Positions 1,968 through 61,859 of a DNA stretch of 64,000 bases are shown here, piece after piece. Under the pieces are notes generated by a model. That model saw nothing but the letters and a program-made list of their open reading frames with translations, searched no databases and was not told where the DNA came from. Numbering within the stretch: the stretch's first letter is position 1; each line of letters starts with the position of its first letter. Source of the stretch: an uncultured Sphingomonadaceae bacterium (lineage in GTDB: Bacteria; Pseudomonadota; Alphaproteobacteria; Sphingomonadales; Sphingomonadaceae); the NCBI GenBank assembly GCA_902806235.1, contig CADCVW010000106.1:43102-107101 (forward strand), given 5' to 3'. A program made the position numbers and the translations under genes.

Positions 1968-3110
1968 CTACTGGCGGATCAGGTCGCGGCCGATGATCAT
2001 GCGCATGATCTCGTTGGTGCCTTCGAGAATGCGGTGGACGCGCAGGTCACGGAAGTAGCGCTCGATCGGATAGTCTTGGAGGTAGCCGTAGCCGCCATGG
2101 AGCTGGAGCGCGCGATCGACGACTGTCATCCCGTTGTCGGTCGCCAGCCGCTTGGCCATGGCGGCGAAGCGCGTCTTGTCCGGCGCGTTGTTCTGCACCT
2201 TCTCCGCCGCCGCGTAGAGCAGGATGCGCGCGGACTGGAGGTCCGTCTCCATGTCGGCCAGCGTGAATTGAGTGTTTTGGAAGTCGGCCACCGTCTGGCC
2301 GAACACCTTGCGCTGCTTGGTGTAATCGATCGCGAGATCGAGGCAGCGCTGCCCGCCGCCGAGCGAGCAGGCGCCGATGTTGAGCCGGCCGCCGTCCAGG
2401 CCCATCATCGCGATGCGGAATCCCTCGCCTTCCGCGCCGACGCGGTTCGCGACGGGCACCCGCACCTCGTCGAAATTGACCTGGGTGGTGGGCTGCGAGC
2501 GCCAGCCGAGCTTGCGCTCGTTCGCGCCGAAGGAGACGCCGGGCATGTCGTGCTCGATCACGAGGCACGAGATGCCCTTCGACCCGTCCTCGCCGGTGCG
2601 GACCATGGTGACGTAGAGGTCGTTCGCGCCGCCGCCGGAGATGAACGCTTTCGATCCGCTAACGACGTAGTCGTCGCCGTCGCGCACCGCCCGCGTCTTG
2701 AGCGCGGCGGCGTCCGAGCCAGAGCCGGGCTCGGTGAGCGCGTAGGAGGCGATGGTCTCCATAGTCACCATCCGCGGCAGGTAGCGCGCCTTGACCTCCG
2801 GCGAGCCGAAGCGGTCGACCATCCAGCTCGCCATGTTGTGGATGGAGATGAAGGCGGAGGTCGACGGGTCGCCGTAGGCCATTGCCTCCATCACCAGCGC
2901 CGCCTCGATCCGGCCGAGGCCGATGCCGCCCTGCTCCTCCGAAACGTAGATCGCGCCGAAGCCGAGCTCGCCCGCGGCGCGCAGTGCGTCGAGCGGAAAG
3001 ATGTGGTGCTCGTCCCATTCCGCGGCGTTGGGGGTGAGCACGTCGGCGGTGAAGCGGCGCGCGGCGTCCTGGATCGCGCGCTGATCGTCAGTGAGCTCGA
3101 ACTGGTTCAT
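1968..3110 (-). CDS. acyl-CoA dehydrogenase (isobutyryl-CoA dehydrogenase-like)
   Basis: 380 aa with [16 protein letters not shown] and QLHGGYGY motifs. Context with the enoyl-CoA hydratase and mmsB suggests valine catabolism. Confidence 0.9.
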
Positions 3111-8748: not shown

Positions 8749-8837
8749 CCCGTCAGCCCTGAGCCTGTTGAAAGGCGGGCCGCAAGTGCCGCCGTCGGTT
8801 CGTGTCGCTCGCCCTTCGACAAGCTCAGGGCTGACGG
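8749..8837. repeat. palindromic REP/MITE-like element, copy A
   Basis: The arms ccgtcagccctgagcctgttgaaagg and cccttcgacaagctcagggctgacgg are reverse complements (23/26). It lies between ccmH and the CcmI-like gene. Confidence 0.8.
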
Positions 8838-8859
8838 AGTTGGATGCACGGACAAGCTT

Positions 8860-13015: not shown

Positions 13016-13945
13016 ATGACCCATGTTGCTCCCCTCCTTCGCCCCGCCGCTGCGGCGCACGCGCCGGCGCGGCCGATGCTCGGGCTGGCGCTGCGGCTCG
13101 GCTCCGTGCTCGCGTTCGGCTGCATGGGCGCGGGGGTAAAGCTGGCGAGCGAGGGCGGGGCGCACCCACTAGAAACGATATTCTACCGCTTCCTGTTCGG
13201 CTTCCTGCCCTTGGCCGCGTGGCTGGCCGCCGGCCCCGGCTGGGGCGCGGTGCGGACGCGCCGGCCGGGCGCGCACCTGTGGCGCGCGGCGGTCGGGCTC
13301 GCCGCGATGATTGCCAACTTCTCGGCGATCGCGCTGCTGCCGCTGGCGGAGGCGACCGCCTTCTCCTTCGCCGCCCCGCTCGCCGCGACGGCGATGGCCG
13401 CGCTGTTCCTGCGCGAACCGGTCGGCCGGCACCGCTGGGCGGCGGTGCTGGTCGGCTTCGCCGGGGTGCTGATCGTCACCCGGCCGGGCGGCGCGAGTGA
13501 CCTGCCGGCGCTGGGCGTCCTGTTCGGGCTGCTCACCCCGTTCGGCATCGCGGCGGCCAACGTCACCGTGCGCCACATCAGCCGGACGGAGCGGCCGGAG
13601 GCGACCGTGTTCTGGTTCGGAGCGACCGCCGCGCTGGCGACCGCGCTGGCGCTACCCTTCGTCGGCGAGCGGCACGACCTGGGCACCTGGGGCGCGTTGC
13701 TCGCTACGGGGCTGGCCGGCGGGGTGGGCCAGCTGTTTATGTCGGCTTCGCTGAAGGCCGCGCCGCTGTCGGTGGTGGGGCCAATTGATTATCTCGCGAT
13801 CGGCGTCGCCGCGTTGCTCGGCTGGGCGATCTGGGGCGACGTGCCCGCGCCGAGCACCTGGGCGGGCGCGGGCGTGGTGGTGGCGAGCGGGCTGTACGTG
13901 GTGCATCGGGAGCGGGTGCGGGCGAAGCAAGCGCTCGCGAGCTGA
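13016..13945 (+). CDS. EamA/DMT-family transporter
   Basis: About 10 TM segments with a duplicated EamA-like architecture. The start is taken at the first ATG after the ccmC divergent region (MTHVAP...). The upstream part of the track ORF overlaps ccmC antisense. Confidence 0.75.
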   Translation: MTHVAPLLRPAAAAHAPARPMLGLALRLGSVLAFGCMGAGVKLASEGGAHPLETIFYRFLFGFLPLAAWLAAGPGWGAVRTRRPGAHLWRAAVGLAAMIANFSAIALLPLAEATAFSFAAPLAATAMAALFLREPVGRHRWAAVLVGFAGVLIVTRPGGASDLPALGVLFGLLTPFGIAAANVTVRHISRTERPEATVFWFGATAALATALALPFVGERHDLGTWGALLATGLAGGVGQLFMSASLKAAPLSVVGPIDYLAIGVAALLGWAIWGDVPAPSTWAGAGVVVASGLYVVHRERVRAKQALAS

Positions 13946-13967
13946 GAACCCGCTGTTTAGCAGAACT

Positions 13968-14062
13968 CCGTTCGGGCTGAGCTTGTCGAAGCTCTCCCTT
14001 CCCGTTCCCCTTCCGGCGGCGGGCCGTCCAGGAAGGCGCTTCGACAAGCTTAGCGCAAACGG
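13968..14062. repeat. palindromic REP/MITE-like element, copy B
   Basis: Arms ccgttcgggctgagcttgtcgaagc and gcttcgacaagcttagcgcaaacgg (22/25 complementary). It shares the 22-mer caggaaggcgcttcgacaagct with copy C. Confidence 0.8.
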
Positions 14063-14083
14063 GTTGCTGAGAGCGAGCGGATC

Positions 14084-15133
14084 CTACCCCCGCCCGATTA
14101 GCTTTCGCGCCATGTCGTCGGCCACCGCCGCTGGGTCGCGGCCTTGCGCCGCGCTCGCCGCCCAGACTTCCTCAAGCCGCTCGGGGATGCGCCGGATGCG
14201 CACCTCCACCTCCGCGCGGCTGCCCTGCCCCAGGTACTCGAGCGCGACGTTGATGATGCCGCCCGCATTGATTACGTAATCAGGAGCGTAGAGGACGCCC
14301 CGCGCGGCGAGCCGCGCGCCGTCCTGCGCCGTCGCCAGCTGGTTGTTCGCCCCGCCCGCGACCACGGGCGCGCGGAGCGCGGCGATGCTCGCCTCGTTTA
14401 GGATCGCCCCCAGCGCGTTCGGGCTCACTACGTCAGCCTCGACGGCCAAGATCTCGTCCGTGCCCGCCACCTCGGCGCCGAGCTCGGCCGCGAACGCCTC
14501 CGCGCGCGCCTGCGAAGCGTCCGCGAGCACCAGCCGCGCGCCTTCCGCCGCCGCGCGCCGGGCGACGCCACCGCCGACGCTGCCGACGCCCTGGATCGCG
14601 AGCCGCACACCCGACAGGTCCTCGCGCCCGAGCGCGCGGCGTACTGCCGCCTTGATCCCCAGGAAGACGCCGAGCGCGGTGAACGGCCCCGGGTCGCCGC
14701 CCACGCCCTCGCCCGTCACGGGCAGGCCGGAAACGTGGCGCGTCCGCGTCGCGATCGCGCTCATGTCCGCGTCCGTCATGCCGACGTCCTCGGCCGTGAC
14801 GTAGCGACCGCTCAAGCGTTCGATCGCCGCGCCGAAGGCGTGCAGCAGCTTTTCGCTCTTCCCGCCGTCCGGCCCGGCCAGGATCACCGCCTTGCCGCCG
14901 CCCATCGGCAGCCCGGCCATGGCGTTTTTATAGCTCATGCCGCGGCTCAGGCGCAGCGCGTCGGTCAGCGCGTCCTCGTCCCGCGCGTAGCGCCAGAAGC
15001 GCGCGCCGCCCGCCGCGGGGCCGAGGTGGGTGGAGTGCACCGCGATGATCGCGCGCAGCCCGCTGGCGGCGTCGCTCGCGAGGTGGACGGCTTCGTGGTC
15101 GTCGAAATCGGGCAAGGCCCAGGGCAGCGTCAC
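14084..15133 (-). CDS. Glu/Leu/Phe/Val dehydrogenase family (leucine/valine dehydrogenase-like)
   Basis: LPMGGGKAVI catalytic-Lys motif and IQGVGSVGGGVA NAD motif. The track ORF N-terminus (to 15223) overlaps tRNA-His, so GTG at 15133 (VTLPWALPDFDDHE) is proposed as the start. Confidence 0.8.
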   Translation of the reverse strand: MTLPWALPDFDDHEAVHLASDAASGLRAIIAVHSTHLGPAAGGARFWRYARDEDALTDALRLSRGMSYKNAMAGLPMGGGKAVILAGPDGGKSEKLLHAFGAAIERLSGRYVTAEDVGMTDADMSAIATRTRHVSGLPVTGEGVGGDPGPFTALGVFLGIKAAVRRALGREDLSGVRLAIQGVGSVGGGVARRAAAEGARLVLADASQARAEAFAAELGAEVAGTDEILAVEADVVSPNALGAILNEASIAALRAPVVAGGANNQLATAQDGARLAARGVLYAPDYVINAGGIINVALEYLGQGSRAEVEVRIRRIPERLEEVWAASAAQGRDPAAVADDMARKLIGRG

Positions 15134-15256: not shown

Positions 15257-15326
15257 GCAAGGAGCGCGCAGATAGGCGCGGCGGTCGGGGGCCGTCAAGG
15301 AAAGACCGGCTCGTCCATCGCTTACC

Positions 15327-15412
15327 CGCTCGGGCTGAGCCTGTCGAAGCCTATTCCTTCCCTTCAGCGACGGGCTGTTCAGGAAGGCGCTTCGACAAGC
15401 TCAGCGCGATCG
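15327..15412. repeat. palindromic REP/MITE-like element, copy C
   Basis: Arms cgctcgggctgagcctgtcgaagc and gcttcgacaagctcagcgcgatcg. It lies between tRNA-His and tRNA-Val, in the same orientation as copy B. Confidence 0.8.
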
Positions 15413-15438
15413 GTGATTTGGAATTAGGAAGTGGAGCG

Positions 15439-39141: not shown

Positions 39142-39226
39142 GGTGCCCCTGGCCCGAGTCGAACGGGCACTCCTTGCGGAACTCGATTTTGAGTCGAGCG
39201 CGTCTACCAATTCCGCCACAGGGGCA
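39142..39226 (-). tRNA. tRNA-Leu (CAA)
   Basis: Hand fold: acceptor GCCCCTG/CAGGGGC, anticodon loop CUCAAAA, long variable arm, encoded CCA. Confidence 0.9.
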
Positions 39227-39265
39227 CGGGTCGCGGCCTACCGGACCCGGCTCTTGGCCGCAAGT

Positions 39266-39796
39266 TCAGGCGAACACGTCGCCCAGGTGCTCCGCGGACT
39301 GCTTCGGGTCCGGCCCGAAGCGGTTCGGGCCGCGCGTGCCGTCGAGCAGCATGAAGACGAACACGGTGATGCCGAGGCCGAAAGCGATCAGCGACATGAG
39401 GCCGATGAACAGGCCGCCCGCAACCGCCGTGTCCGGCGCGCCGACGATCACCGCGATCGCGGCGAGCATCAGCAGATAGGGAACGGCGGGGGCGAGGAGC
39501 CACCAGCCCGTCCGGTCCGTGTCGTGCAGCCGGCGCACCCCAACGGCGATGGAAGGAATAATGAGGCCCAAAACGACGACGAGGTAGAGCAGCCCGATGA
39601 TGCCCGCGCCGACGCCCGCCGCCGCGACCGCCGTCGGATCAGTGAGCGCGACCAGCCCGCCGCCGAACAACGCCATCAAGCCTACTAGCCCGACGTAAAG
39701 CAGGAACTGGAACAGGATGAACATCCAGTACTCCTTACGGCGCGATCGGCCGCGGAACTCGCCGTAGCGGCGCAGCGGCAGCAGCATGTAGTTCAT
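39266..39796 (-). CDS. DUF805 (YhaH-like) membrane protein
   Basis: RRKEYWMF N-terminal motif and the RRLHDTDRTGWW motif. Confidence 0.75.
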   Translation of the reverse strand: MNYMLLPLRRYGEFRGRSRRKEYWMFILFQFLLYVGLVGLMALFGGGLVALTDPTAVAAAGVGAGIIGLLYLVVVLGLIIPSIAVGVRRLHDTDRTGWWLLAPAVPYLLMLAAIAVIVGAPDTAVAGGLFIGLMSLIAFGLGITVFVFMLLDGTRGPNRFGPDPKQSAEHLGDVFA

Positions 39797-40190
39797 CTCG
39801 TCCTCCCCTCTTGTCAGCTCCGCGGCGCCTGGCGGCGGTAGCTCAGCGCCTCACCGACGTGGACGCGCCTCACGCCGTCCGCGCCGGCCAAGTCGGCGAC
39901 CGTGCGCGCCACTTTGAGCACGCGGTGGTAACCGCGCGCGGACAAGCGCATCGCCTCCGCCGCCTGGGCGAGCAGCCGGCGGCCGGGCTCGTCGGGCGTC
40001 GCGGCGCGATCGAGCACCGCGCCGTAGGCCTCCGCGTTGGTGCGGACGCCATCGTCGGCGTAGCGCGCCGTCTGCACCGCGCGCGCCCGCGCCACCCGCG
40101 CCGCGACCTCCACAGACCCCTCGTGGCCGGCGGCAACATCAGGTCGGCGGCGGACACGGGCTGCAAGTCGACGTAAAGGTCGATGCGATC

Positions 40191-40794
40191 CCGCATTGCT
40201 ACCTTTTCAAGCTTGGCATCGATCGTCTGCCTCTACCCGCCTTAGCAGACACTTGGGTGTCCGGAAGCAAGTAGGTTTGAATCATTGTCATAGCCAGAGA
40301 GTAAAGCTTTTGTGCCATTAAGACTGTACACAAAGGTTTCCAGCCCTGTTCCACAAGTGAATTCTGTCTGATAGCGTATCGTGACATGGTTGCCGCCCGT
40401 GCCGTAGCTTGTCCGATAATCTTCTAGCTCACTTGCCTGAATAGGTCCGAGTCTCATATGCACGATAGCTAACGACTGAACAAACCTCGATCTCGACGTT
40501 TTATCCTTAAGCTCGGCTGACGCTTCATCGTAAAGCGCAGCAAACTGACCCTCCGCGAATTGCTAGCGAAAACGGGCGATCTCTCGCTCTGTGGTGTTGA
40601 CCTCTTCGCCGCCTGAGCAAGACAATAGGGTGAGCAGCGTTACACACAGCAAACTTGTCCACCCCTGCTTCATGCTCATGCTCCAATTGGTGCGTAGACG
40701 TGCTACTCTCACCGGGGTTTGCCTTCCACCCGTGGCGGACATTCAAGCCTAGAAACGGCGGAAAGGCCCAGCTTCCAACGTCCTGCCGTATGCT
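40191..40794. mobile_element. 604-bp low-GC insertion inside comM (origin and mechanism unknown)
   Basis: By hand count, 40201-40680 has 242/480 G+C (50%), against 46/60 (77%) in flank line 39841-39900. It interrupts SGPLLDR|IDL and is flanked by the near-identical hexamers gcgatc (40185-40190) and gcggtc (40795-40800). Confidence 0.55.
40242..40679 (-). pseudogene. small lipoprotein gene with in-frame TAG (NTF2/DUF4019-like pattern, tentative)
   Basis: MSMKQGWTSLLCVTLLTLLSCSGG (signal plus LLSC lipobox), then ...EREIARFR, TAG (40563-40565), then in the same frame QFAEGQFAALYDEASAELKDK...VTIRYQTEFTCGTGLETFVYSLNGTKALLSGYDND... GGAG lies 7 nt before the second ATG (40673). Confidence 0.45.
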
Positions 40795-42039
40795 GCGGTC
40801 GAGCAGCGGCCCCGACACCTTGGCCTGGTAATCCGCCGCGCACTTGGACGCGCGAACAGGCGAGCGCCGGTTCGCCTAGGTGCCCGCAGCGGCACGGGTT
40901 CATCGCCGTGACGAGCTGGACTCGGGCGGGGAAGGTGACTCGGGCGTTAGGCCGCGCGACGCTCACCGTGCCCGTCTCCAGCGGCTGCCGGAGCGAGTCG
41001 AGCACCGGGCGTTGAAACTGGGGCAGCTCGTCGAGGAACAGCACGCCCAAGTGCGCCAGGCTCACCTCCCCCGGCCGGACGGGCAAGCCGCCGCCGACCA
41101 GCGCGGCCATGGAGGCGCTGTGGTGCGGGCTGCGAAACGGGCGGCTGCGGCGGATGCGCCCGCCCTCCAGCTCGCTTGCGACGGAGGCGACCATCGACGG
41201 CTCCGTCGCTTCGGCCGCGGTGAGCGGCGGCAGGATGCCGGGGATTGCAGGCGGCAAGCAGCGACTTGCCGGCGCCGGGCAGGCCGCTCATCAGCAGGTT
41301 GCCCCCCCCCGCGGCGGCGATCTCCACTGCGCTTGGCTGTCTCCTGCCTCTTCACCTGGGCGAGGTCGGGCCCGCGCTCGGGCGCGTCGGCCTTTGCGCA
41401 AGCGGGCGCGGAGAGCACCGCACGACCGTTGAATTGGTTGAGCAAGGACAGGATGTTGCGCGGCGCGAGCAGCTCGATGCCGCTCGCCCAGGCGGCCTCG
41501 GCGCCCTGCGCCTGCGGGCAGATCAGCCCCATCCCCCGTTCGCTCGCGTGCATGGCGGCTAGCAAGGTGCCCGGCGACGGCGTGAGCTACCAGTCAAGCC
41601 CGAGCTCGCCCACCGCGACGAAGGCGGACAAGGAGTCCGCGGCCACCGCGCCCAGCGCGCAGAGCAGCGCCCGCGCGATCGGCAAGTCGTAGTGCGGGCC
41701 TTCCTTGGGCAGGTCGGCGGGCGACAGGTTCACGATCACGCGCTTGGGCGGCATCGCCAAGCCGATGGAGTCGAGCGCGGCGCGCACCCGCTCGCAGGAC
41801 TCCGCCACAGCCTTACCGAGGAGGCCGACCACGACGAAGGCGGGCAGCCCGGCCGCGATCTGCACCTGCGCTTCGACTGCGCGCGCCTCCAGCCCCAGAA
41901 ACGCCACCGTGGAGACTTGCGCGACCATCAAGCCCCTTTCCCCACCTTTGTTCCTGAAGCGGCGAACGACGGCTGTCGAGGGGCGGCGCGCGAACCCCGT
42001 CCCTTGTCCCGCGCCGGGGCGTCGGCCACATTGACCCGC

Positions 42040-60552: not shown

Positions 60553-61859
60553 GGGGCAAGCGCGTCCTCCTGATCGTCGGCGGGGGCATCGCCGCCTACA
60601 AATCTTGCGAGCTGATCCGCGAGTTGCGGCGGAACGGCTGCGCCGTGCGCTGCGTGCTGACGGCGGGGGGGGCGCAGTTCGTAACGCCCATGCTGCTCGC
60701 GGCGCTCAGCGAGCACCCCGTCCACACCAGCCTCTGGGACCTGAAGGACGAGGCGGAGATGGGGCACATCCAGCTCAGCCGCGAGGCGGACCTGCTGGTC
60801 GTCTGCCCGGCTTCGGCCGACCTGCTGGCGCGCATGGCGACGGGCAAGGCGGACGATCTGGCCGCCACCGTGCTGCTGGCGACGGACAAGCCGGTGCTCG
60901 CCGTTCCTGCGATGAACGTGCGCATGTGGCTGCATCCGGCGACGAAGCGCAACGTGGCGCAGCTGCGCGCGGACGGGGTGGAGGTGCTGGAGCCCGACGA
61001 GGGGCCGATGGCTTGCGGCGAGTTCGGGCCGGGGCGGCTGCCGGAGATGGAGCGGATCGTGGCGGCGGTGCGGGACCGGCTGGGGCGGTCACAGTTCCAG
61101 GCCCAGAACACCGTTCGGGCTGAGCCTGTCGAAGCCCTCCCTTCTTCCGGCGATGGAAAAGACGGGAGCCCTTCGACAAGCTCAGGGCGAACGGGGGTGA
61201 GTGGGACGGGTGATAATTCGCTCGCCGGCCGCCACGTCCTCGTCACCGCCGGCCCCACCCACGAGCCGATCGACCCGGTTCGCTACATCGCCAACCGGTC
61301 GTCGGGGAAGCAGGGCTTTGCAATTGCCGGGGCACTCGCCGCACTCGGCGCGCGGGTGACGCTGGTGGCGGGGCCGGTAGCGTTGCCGACGCCGCCCGGC
61401 GAGGTGCGGCGGGTGGACGTGGAGACGGCGCGGGAGATGGCGGCGGCGGTGGACGCCGCCTTGCCGGCGGACGCGGCGGTGCTGGTGGCGGCGGTGGCCG
61501 ACTGGCGGGCGGAAGCGTCAGCGGCGAAGATCAAGAAGCGGGCGGGCGGGCCGCCGCCGGCGCTGAGCCTGACGGAGAACCCGGACATCCTGGCCGGCCT
61601 CGCCGGCTCGCCCGACCGTCCCCGCCTGCTGGTCGGCTTCGCGGCGGAAACGGAGGAGGTAATCGAGCATGCCGTGGCCAAGCGGGCGCGGAAGGGGTGC
61701 GACTGGATCATCGCCAACGACGTGTCGGGAAACGTGATGGGGGGCGACGCGAACCGGCCGCATCTGGTCACGGCGGGAGGCGTCGAGAGTTGGGACGAGC
61801 TGCCGAAGGCCGAGGTCGCGGCGCGACTGGCGCGGAGGATCGCCGATGCGCTCTCCTGA
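60549..61859 (+). CDS. coaBC: bifunctional phosphopantothenoylcysteine decarboxylase / synthetase
   Basis: CoaC N-domain ([12 protein letters not shown]...PAMN..MW) and CoaB C-domain ([25 protein letters not shown]). The ATG overlaps the ubiB stop. The linker carries repeat copy D. Confidence 0.93.
61111..61194. repeat. palindromic REP/MITE-like element, copy D, inside the coaBC reading frame
   Basis: Arms ccgttcgggctgagcctgtcgaagccc and gcccttcgacaagctcagggcgaacgg. 84 nt (28 codons). It is translated as ...[28 protein letters not shown]... Confidence 0.8.

Follow-up and report, generated by a model that had tools for sequence, protein, structure and literature searches.

The interrupted comM gene and its insert

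The DNA analysed here, referred to as the window, is a stretch of 64,000 nucleotides from contig CADCVW010000106.1 of an uncultured Sphingomonadaceae bacterium. Its comM gene, the gene for a YifB/Mg-chelatase-like AAA+ ATPase, occupies 41928 to 39814 of the minus strand and is interrupted by extra DNA. Relative to an uninterrupted comM, the extra DNA spans 40185-40794, 610 nt with a G+C content of 0.523 in a background of about 71%, and sits between the codons ...SGPLLDR and IDL... of the gene. The other 610-nt segments of the 64 kb have a mean G+C content of 0.707 (standard deviation 0.031, range 0.625 to about 0.78), which places the insert at z = -6. In comM sense, with a stroke marking the junction, the left end reads ...CTGCTCGACCGC / AGCATACGG... 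and the right end ...GCAATGCGGGATCGC / ATCGACCTT..., the gene resuming with ATCGACC. The insert is flanked by the near-repeat GACCGC and GATCGC, in which five of the six bases agree and CGC is exact; agreement at five or more positions has a chance probability of about 0.5%. The features of the locus are as follows, with the phage-side arms of an attachment site called P and P', the bacterial arms B and B', and the left and right junctions of an integrated element attL and attR.

39814-40190, minus strand: 3' part of the comM pseudogene; it opens on the second GA core copy (40189-40190), followed by the B' arm TCGCATCGACC... (tblastn against P0166)
40191-40798, minus strand: element-derived DNA, 608 nt, G+C 0.525; on the preferred reading the remnant of the right end of a prophage
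40191-40214, minus strand: P arm of attR, AAGCTTGAAAAGGTAGCAATGCGG, whose outer motif CTTGA (40207-40211) stands 16 nt away from the GA core
40242-40673, minus strand: DUF4019/DUF3887-type small lipoprotein gene, 143 codons, lipobox LLSC, TAA at 40242-40244
40674-40798, minus strand: leader, G+C about 0.58, read directly from the sequence
40799-40822, minus strand: left junction, B arm ...GGGGCCGCTGCTC with the presumed crossover GA at 40799-40800; the P' arm is missing
40799-41928, minus strand: 5' part of the comM pseudogene, whose last bases are the GA of codon Asp-378 (Pfam, tblastn and strain comparison)

An earlier, sequence-only reading of this DNA had reported a 604-bp insert at 40191-40794 with a drop in G+C, counted by hand as 242 of 480 bases over 40201-40680. 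The count is exact and the insert is real, but the reported span omits the 6-nt repeat copy at 40185-40190 and is thus short of the 610 nt of extra DNA. The same reading took LDRID as the uninterrupted sequence at this site, and related sphingomonads bear this out: 79 of 80 fetched comM loci have CTN GAY MGN ATY GAY at the insertion site, and the 80th, L011, was overlooked by the motif scan and nevertheless matches at all 502 residues. None of the 80 loci is interrupted, and the 120 best ComM proteins from a large protein collection are contiguous, with about 502 residues. Since the insert is missing from all of these, it is not ancestral sequence common to the relatives.

Two further assemblies carry the same insert. 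The Logan assembly of run ERR3870372 (L081) is 100% identical to the window over 39201-40823 and covers both junctions, while an ENA contig of 48.7 kb from the separate assembly ERZ1300029 (L082) is 99.8% identical over 12.1 kb and has three single-nucleotide polymorphisms (SNPs) within the insert, at 40409, 40476 and 40774. Occurring in three assemblies, the insert is real and is fixed in the lineage. The Logan contig ends at 40823, exactly 30 nt (k-1) before the first base that differs from intact comM, so the de Bruijn graph must branch at the left junction. The branch was set aside as a sign of an empty allele in the sample, there being no matching break at the other junction; it probably comes from the intact comM of another sphingomonad in the sample, because the 36 nt upstream are almost invariant between sphingomonads (2 of 36 differ). 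No second copy of the insert occurs in the window, and no donor or other copy was found in plasmids (blastn), in plasmids and phages (tblastn) or in JGI metagenomes (protein patterns). A lineage-specific 26-mer across the right flank has no match in JGI metagenomes, and exact-protein look-ups gave only insert-bearing contigs and no empty-site allele of the same species. Rfam, promoter and terminator scans of the insert region gave nothing meaningful.

The insert holds one gene, which lies on the same strand as comM and encodes a lipoprotein signal peptide, lipobox Cys included, and then a conserved domain of about 100 residues. A GGAG ribosome-binding site precedes its ATG in the leader, which may also contain the last 14 codons and the stop of a truncated upstream gene (...AYGRTLEAGPFRRF, then the stop codon); downstream of the gene, 51 nt remain (40191-40241). 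Because the reading frame is broken by a premature TAG at codon 37 (40563-40565), where relatives have Q or H, the lipoprotein gene is a pseudogene. A full phmmer scan returned 598 homologues, every one a lipoprotein of about 135-142 residues, and the alignment with 20 of them is collinear and keeps all 10 invariant residues. Pfam DUF4019 matches 21 of 21 family members; the window copy itself reaches E = 1e-4 and 23 bits, under the curated cut-off of 26.5 bits. A word-indexed search with the lipoprotein gave no match, and close relatives are absent from the phmmer scan as well. The third-position G+C content of the gene is 0.52, as against 0.90-0.92 in host genes, and it is therefore foreign and barely ameliorated.

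The host gene has decayed on both sides of the insert. Pfam ChlI, Mg_chelatase and Mg_chelatase_C are found on the reconstructed ComM protein, which ends at the TGA at 39814-39816. Frame-by-frame tblastn against the closest ComM (P0166, 78% identity) locates an in-frame TAG at 41587-41589, and tblastn with the same protein places frameshifts near 41330 (-2), 41245 (+1), 40852 (-2) and 40120 (-1). The TAG is part of a clustered change at 41587-41595 in which the GGGCGG (Gly-Arg) of relatives has become TGGTAG (Trp-stop), three substitutions in six bases. A poly-C run in the gene, at 41302-41310, varies in length between strains (C9 in the window, C7 in L082 and C6 in L085), which fits neutral slippage in a dead gene.

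Serine-integrase elements at the same comM codon

A ComM scan of viral contigs gave many partial comM matches, and those in L133, L142, L172 and L109 end exactly at ...SGPLLD. In L133 and L142, AATAATG... follows directly after ...CTGCTCGAC, and a gene begins 42 nt past the junction in L133 and at a similar distance in L142. Its product of 575-587 residues has Resolvase, Recombinase and Zn_ribbon_recom domains, the composition of a large serine recombinase (LSR). The protein collection holds 40 homologues of this LSR family; the three that were looked up, from Sphingomonas aracearum (L205), a JGI contig (L206/L207) and L208, all lie directly after a truncated comM. The gene order in L206/L207, yidC-yidD-rnpA-rpmH-comM, is that of the window, and in L208 a phage capsid gene comes after the integrase. 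Across the family the LSR gene starts 40-130 nt from the junction.

Five attL junctions of the family all read ...CTGCTCGA / C(A/C)ATAA...TCAAG. Right junctions were found with a comM 3' pattern in L187, L188 and L192, and L187 and L142 fall on one contig, which gives an element of about 39 kb. The right junction is GCACTTGAAAAGCGAACAATACCA / GA / TCGGATCGACC in L192 and CTCTTGAAAAGGGTAATTATGCGT / GA / CCGCATCGACC in L188. The phage arms mirror each other, with CTTGA 16 nt to the left of GA at the right junctions and TCAAG 16 nt to its right at the left junctions. Because of this mirror symmetry GA is taken as the centre, and we infer that the phage site of the family is CTTGA-N16-GA-N16-TCAAG, with the crossover on the GA that opens the Asp-378 codon. 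In L188, attR is adjoined by what may be a cargo gene or one of abortive-infection type, and the window's insert would fit the pattern if its right end also held cargo. Scanning viral contigs for further family integrases recovered only the two known loci, no close relative of the integrase was found among sequenced phages, and a degenerate P-arm pattern recovered only L192 from the viral contigs.

The right end of the insert, CTTGAAAAGGTAGCAATGCGG / GA / TCGCATCGACC, resembles these right junctions. A CTTGAAAAG(G) block is common to the window and L192 as a 9-mer at the same offset, and to the window and L188 as a 10-mer one base further out, and the homology to L192 is about 50 nt long and includes GCGGGTAG.GGC. 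When the arm homology was measured by unconstrained local alignment against 2000 shuffles, the observed score was reached by 3 of the 2000 for L192 and by 14 of the 2000 for L188. On the strength of the CTTGAAAAG block, the extended L192 homology and the shuffle result, the right junction of the window is assigned, by sequence comparison, as a true attR of the comM Asp-378 LSR family. The GAT at this junction requires no mutation, since GAT is also present in L192 and is natural in some sphingomonads (L049 and L057). A hairpin, CGATGCGATCCCGCATTG, spans the right junction at 40181-40198 on the plus strand; it reflects the inner dyad of attR, with ...ATGCG in the P arm and CGCAT... in the B' arm around GA.

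The left junction of the window, ...CTGCTCGA / CCGCAG..., is at the same GA as the attL and attR junctions of the family. The bases that follow this GA resemble a B' arm: CCGCA is identical and 13 of 24 positions match the B' consensus. GA sites that score as B'-like as this make up 0.76% of those in related phage DNA, and about 20 equally good secondary sites are expected in a 40-kb phage; the resemblance is for this reason modest support for a secondary-site event. The window feature is classed as a remnant of an LSR element and not as a member of the family, because no family integrase is found in the window.

In L109 (IMGVR_UViG_2667527889_000006, near 3086), the comM of a distant host, with a ComM 49% identical, is cut after the same GPLLD and adjoins an AT-rich element whose LSR has no BLASTP similarity to the sphingomonad LSRs; this may be an independent use of the same comM site. 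A second, well-populated prophage site lies at about residues 335-350 of comM (L098, L127, L143, L172 and many others), where the comM part of viral contigs runs from residue 1 to about 338-350 or from 337 to 502. One contig, UViG_3300031413_000015, has comM(1-338), about 43 kb of other DNA and comM(335-378), and it breaks off precisely on the GAC used by the serine integrases, a sign that one comM may hold two elements. The corresponding site of E. coli yifB is no hot spot: 5415 of 5426 genomes have the region intact, and in the single interrupted case listed the break lies about 29 bp off.

Origin of the insert

The insert is probably the last 0.6 kb or so of a prophage that a large serine integrase had placed in comM. 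The place of the insert, the integrase-bearing family found there and the right-arm homology are observed; the GA crossover, the former full prophage and the manner of its deletion are reconstructed from them. The element, a temperate phage or an integrative element of phage type, would have used its own LSR to enter comM site-specifically. The integrase would pair the CTTGA-N16-GA-N16-TCAAG phage site with a bacterial site over the ...GPLLDRIDL... codons, cut both at the central GA, which makes up the first two positions of codon Asp-378, and exchange the halves. In this way comM would be split by 39-40 kb of phage DNA, with the integrase gene 40-130 nt inside the left junction and cargo inside the right. 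A later deletion would then have removed nearly the whole element, including the integrase gene and the left phage arm, and left about 0.6 kb: the leader, the cargo lipoprotein gene and the right phage arm joined to comM. The deletion may have been made by the integrase itself, recombining attL with a secondary site inside the prophage whose right half resembled the bacterial arm, an event that would excise a circle carrying the integrase gene. The left junction leaves comM whole as far as the presumed crossover GA and has no P' bases, a precision above that of a random deletion endpoint. Because the integrase and the complete left site are gone, the remnant would be unable to excise; comM would have stayed broken and gained one stop and four frameshifts, and the lipoprotein gene would have gained its nonsense mutation.

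If the insert arose in this manner, the flanking near-repeat ACCGC/ATCGC would be the common GA crossover dinucleotide together with neighbouring bases that are alike by chance. The direct repeat of the sequence-only reading is present, with its one mismatch, but is not a target duplication made by transposition.

Several observations weigh against the prophage-remnant reading. The full prophage at this locus is deduced and not seen: tblastn with two family integrases finds no LSR-like sequence in the window, and the window has no phage gene. No genome was found that is near enough to display the empty or the fully occupied site of the species, the closest ComM being 78% identical. After the left GA the window continues with CCGCAGCATACGG..., which is unlike the five P' arms (shuffle fractions 0.13-0.84), whereas most pairs of family P' arms give fractions below 0.01. 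The GA crossover has mirror symmetry as its sole basis, and L188 and L192 are tied to the LSR family by the common site and the mirror motif only. The lipoprotein gene has a G+C content of 50%, as against 59-63% in related elements; its best match is only 45% identical, and the one family member looked up stands in an ordinary chromosomal setting.

Some of the same features would suit a one-off illegitimate insertion, in which a random foreign fragment entered comM at a double-strand break or through microhomology during DNA uptake. There is no recombinase, transposase or inverted repeat, the insert is single-copy and its foreign gene has no close relatives, the fragment seems to start in the 3' end of another gene, and the junctions have 3-6 nt of microhomology. 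An event of this kind would nevertheless leave unexplained why the junction is on the exact codon used by a serine-integrase family and why the last 24-50 nt match a phage-side arm at the same offset, and we consider it unlikely.

A non-autonomous circle of about 0.6 kb, consisting of one gene and an attachment site and inserted whole by an integrase acting in trans from a resident or co-infecting serine-integrase phage, is improbable to a somewhat greater degree. Both junctions lie exactly at the presumed crossover, the right arm is canonical, and joining the ends gives ...GCAATGCGG-GA-CCGCAGCAT..., with the 5-nt dyad TGCGG/CCGCA around GA. The left arm, however, is not P'-like but resembles a bacterial arm. 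The joined site is for that reason attR-like, and given their directionality serine integrases do not normally recombine an attR-like site with attB. Neither the unit nor the joined site was found a second time. The joined ends of the insert, GCAATGCGGGACCGCAGCATAC, are matched exactly over 22 nt at 1427-1448 of L182 (IMGVR_UViG_3300014866_000001), probably by coincidence; this is the sole match in the viral contigs and lies inside an open reading frame (ORF) for a 392-residue tail-fibre-like protein of an unrelated 68-kb phage contig.

The sequence-only reading had proposed that the insert occupies the conserved attachment site of the Tn7-like Tn6022/AbaR islands of Acinetobacter. The wider idea of a conserved site occupied by a foreign relic is supported, though with the LSR prophage family in place of a Tn7-like element. 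ACCGC is the target duplication of Tn6022 (PMC11014353), as that reading had stated, and comM is targeted by both Tn6022 and the Tsy elements (PMC10293859), but the duplication lies on the other strand and reads GCGGT in comM sense. The match to ACCGC is little informative, because this pentamer occurs 4 times in the window's comM and 328 times in the window. Junctions of Tn6022 were read from two contigs that carry comM halves, L209 and L210 (CAKLQH020000023.1 and CAKLQH020000037.1). These contigs are labelled 'Acinetobacter phage MD-2021a' but are chromosomal contigs of A. baumannii, and they end in Tn6022/AbaR termini inside comM. The left junction is ...GTTGGGGGCGGT / TGTCAG... (in longer form ...GCACTGGTTGGGGGCGGT / TGTCAGTTCC...) and the right junction ...AATGACA / GCGGTTCACACC... 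(in longer form ...GTAAATGACA / GCGGTTCACACCCTAAACCGGGTGAA...). The 5-bp duplication therefore falls in the ALVGGG codons and not in LDRID. It precedes Walker B by about 17 codons, in agreement with the published TnsF target in the Walker B region of comM (PMC10293859). The equivalent ALVGGG codons of the window, at 41087-41101, are intact and unoccupied and lie 293 bp upstream of the insert. Published primers for E. coli comM, mapped on yifB, are consistent with this placement: those for AjTn6022 bracket nt 783-936 and the downstream one for ZooTsy reaches no further than nt 1117, whereas the LDRFD codons are at 1126-1140.

The ends of the insert, AGCATACGG... and ...AATGCGGG, likewise have no significant terminal repeats, no TGT/ACA ends and no repeated end-binding sites of TnsB type. 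No tns genes are found: the insert holds the one lipoprotein ORF, and the called genes within about 5 kb are housekeeping genes. The points that the sequence-only reading had itself held against a transposon, namely the lack of terminal inverted repeats, TGT...ACA ends and a transposase or integrase and the non-identity of the two repeat copies, were all confirmed. A relic of Tn6022/AbaR or of a Tsy element at a comM site recognised by TnsF is therefore refuted on position, the VGGG junction of Acinetobacter being 293 bp from the insert, and has hardly any probability left. Other classes of element were rejected as well. For a Tsy element the insert is misplaced, as the Walker B codons LFLDEL are at 41024-41041 and the insert's first base, 40798, is some 225 bp farther downstream. 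An insertion sequence or a miniature inverted-repeat transposable element would not account for the lack of terminal inverted repeats, the difference between the repeat copies and the single copy in the window, with none in the collections searched. An integron cassette was rejected by eye, as the ends show neither a GTTRRRY core nor anything resembling attC.

An assembly chimera, possible in principle with what is apparently a metagenomic source, or ancestral sequence present in all relatives, can be dismissed with near certainty, as both junctions recur in the Logan assembly and in the ENA contig with its SNPs inside the insert, and the loci of 80 relatives and the 120 best ComM proteins lack it.

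Known systems and significance

A prophage remnant at the attachment site of a serine integrase is an already known kind of feature. No published description of the sphingomonad LSR family or of its comM site was found, and the closest counterpart in the literature is phage WO of Wolbachia, whose serine-recombinase members integrate into an Mg-chelatase (comM-family) gene (PMC9203015, PMC5062602, PMC5447182). The sr1WO group of phage WO (WOCauB2, WORiC, WOVitA2 and others) has the LSR gene at one end, and rearranged remnants have been described (PMC9203015, PMC5062602, PMC5447182). Phage WO, like the element proposed here, is a temperate phage of an alphaproteobacterium and leaves parts of a comM-family gene on its two sides, a likeness at the level of the gene. 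Unlike phage WO, the window keeps about 0.6 kb and no recombinase.

Prophages that split genes by serine integrases are also found in Listeria, where A118 and phi10403S lie in comK, and B. subtilis, where SPbeta lies in spsM and skin in sigK. These elements have a 2-bp crossover and outer inverted motifs in the phage arms and make no target duplication, and skin is a decayed prophage. The window resembles these elements in its probable LSR integration at a short site inside a protein-coding gene. In those elements, however, the recombinase is kept and excision restores the gene, whereas the window has a remnant without a recombinase and without one arm, in a host gene that has decayed.

With Tn6022/AbaR the window has in common a disrupted comM and a short repeat that flanks the insert. 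Tn6022/AbaR, a Tn7-like element with TnsABC, TniQ and TnsF, in contrast enters at the VGGG codons about 100 codons upstream by cut-and-paste, with an exact 5-bp duplication, TGT/ACA ends and TnsB repeats, none of which is seen here. The Tsy elements carry a tyrosine recombinase and an active TnsF and enter the Walker B region of comM (PMC10293859). Like the window's insert they interrupt comM and lack inverted repeats, and a recombinase drives their insertion as one probably drove the insertion here; they differ in that the window has neither a tyrosine recombinase gene nor an insertion at the Walker B position. The LSR elements add a further route to the disabling of comM, which Tn6022 interrupts at the VGGG codons and Tsy elements near Walker B.

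More tentatively, the GA of the Asp codon in ...GPLLDRIDL... could be a landing site used widely and repeatedly by unrelated LSRs, whose intact members would be reversible switches, with the window representing the failure of such a switch by secondary-site deletion; we regard this wider proposal as doubtful. The candidates for users of the site are the elements of sphingomonads, the AT-rich element in the distant host of L109 and, possibly, phage WO of Wolbachia. If the proposal is true, integration and excision would turn off and on the helicase that serves recombination in transformation and with gene-transfer agents, and a deletion catalysed by the integrase would have removed the integrase and locked comM off for good. 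The window remnant itself is an ordinary genomic scar, a dead cargo gene in a dead competence gene. The further prophage site at about residue 337 lends support to the idea that comM is favoured as a target because its disruption shields resident elements from replacement by incoming DNA. Serine integrases with known sites are sought as tools for genome engineering, and the comM site is nearly invariant across many sphingomonads.

The neighbours of comM are intact and comprise a parA-like gene, tRNA-Leu, a DUF805 gene, rpmH, rnpA, yidD and yidC. Among the called genes within about 5 kb on each side, taken from the gene list of L082, there is no transposase or integrase, and all are housekeeping genes. 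Elsewhere in the window, palindromic intergenic repeats with the core CCGTTCGGGCTGAGCTTGTCGAAGC / GCTTCGACAAGCTCAGCGCGAACGG occur at 8750-8842, 13945-14085, 15319-15420 and 61104-61199, and a tRNA-His/tRNA-Val pair is bracketed by two copies of this repeat.

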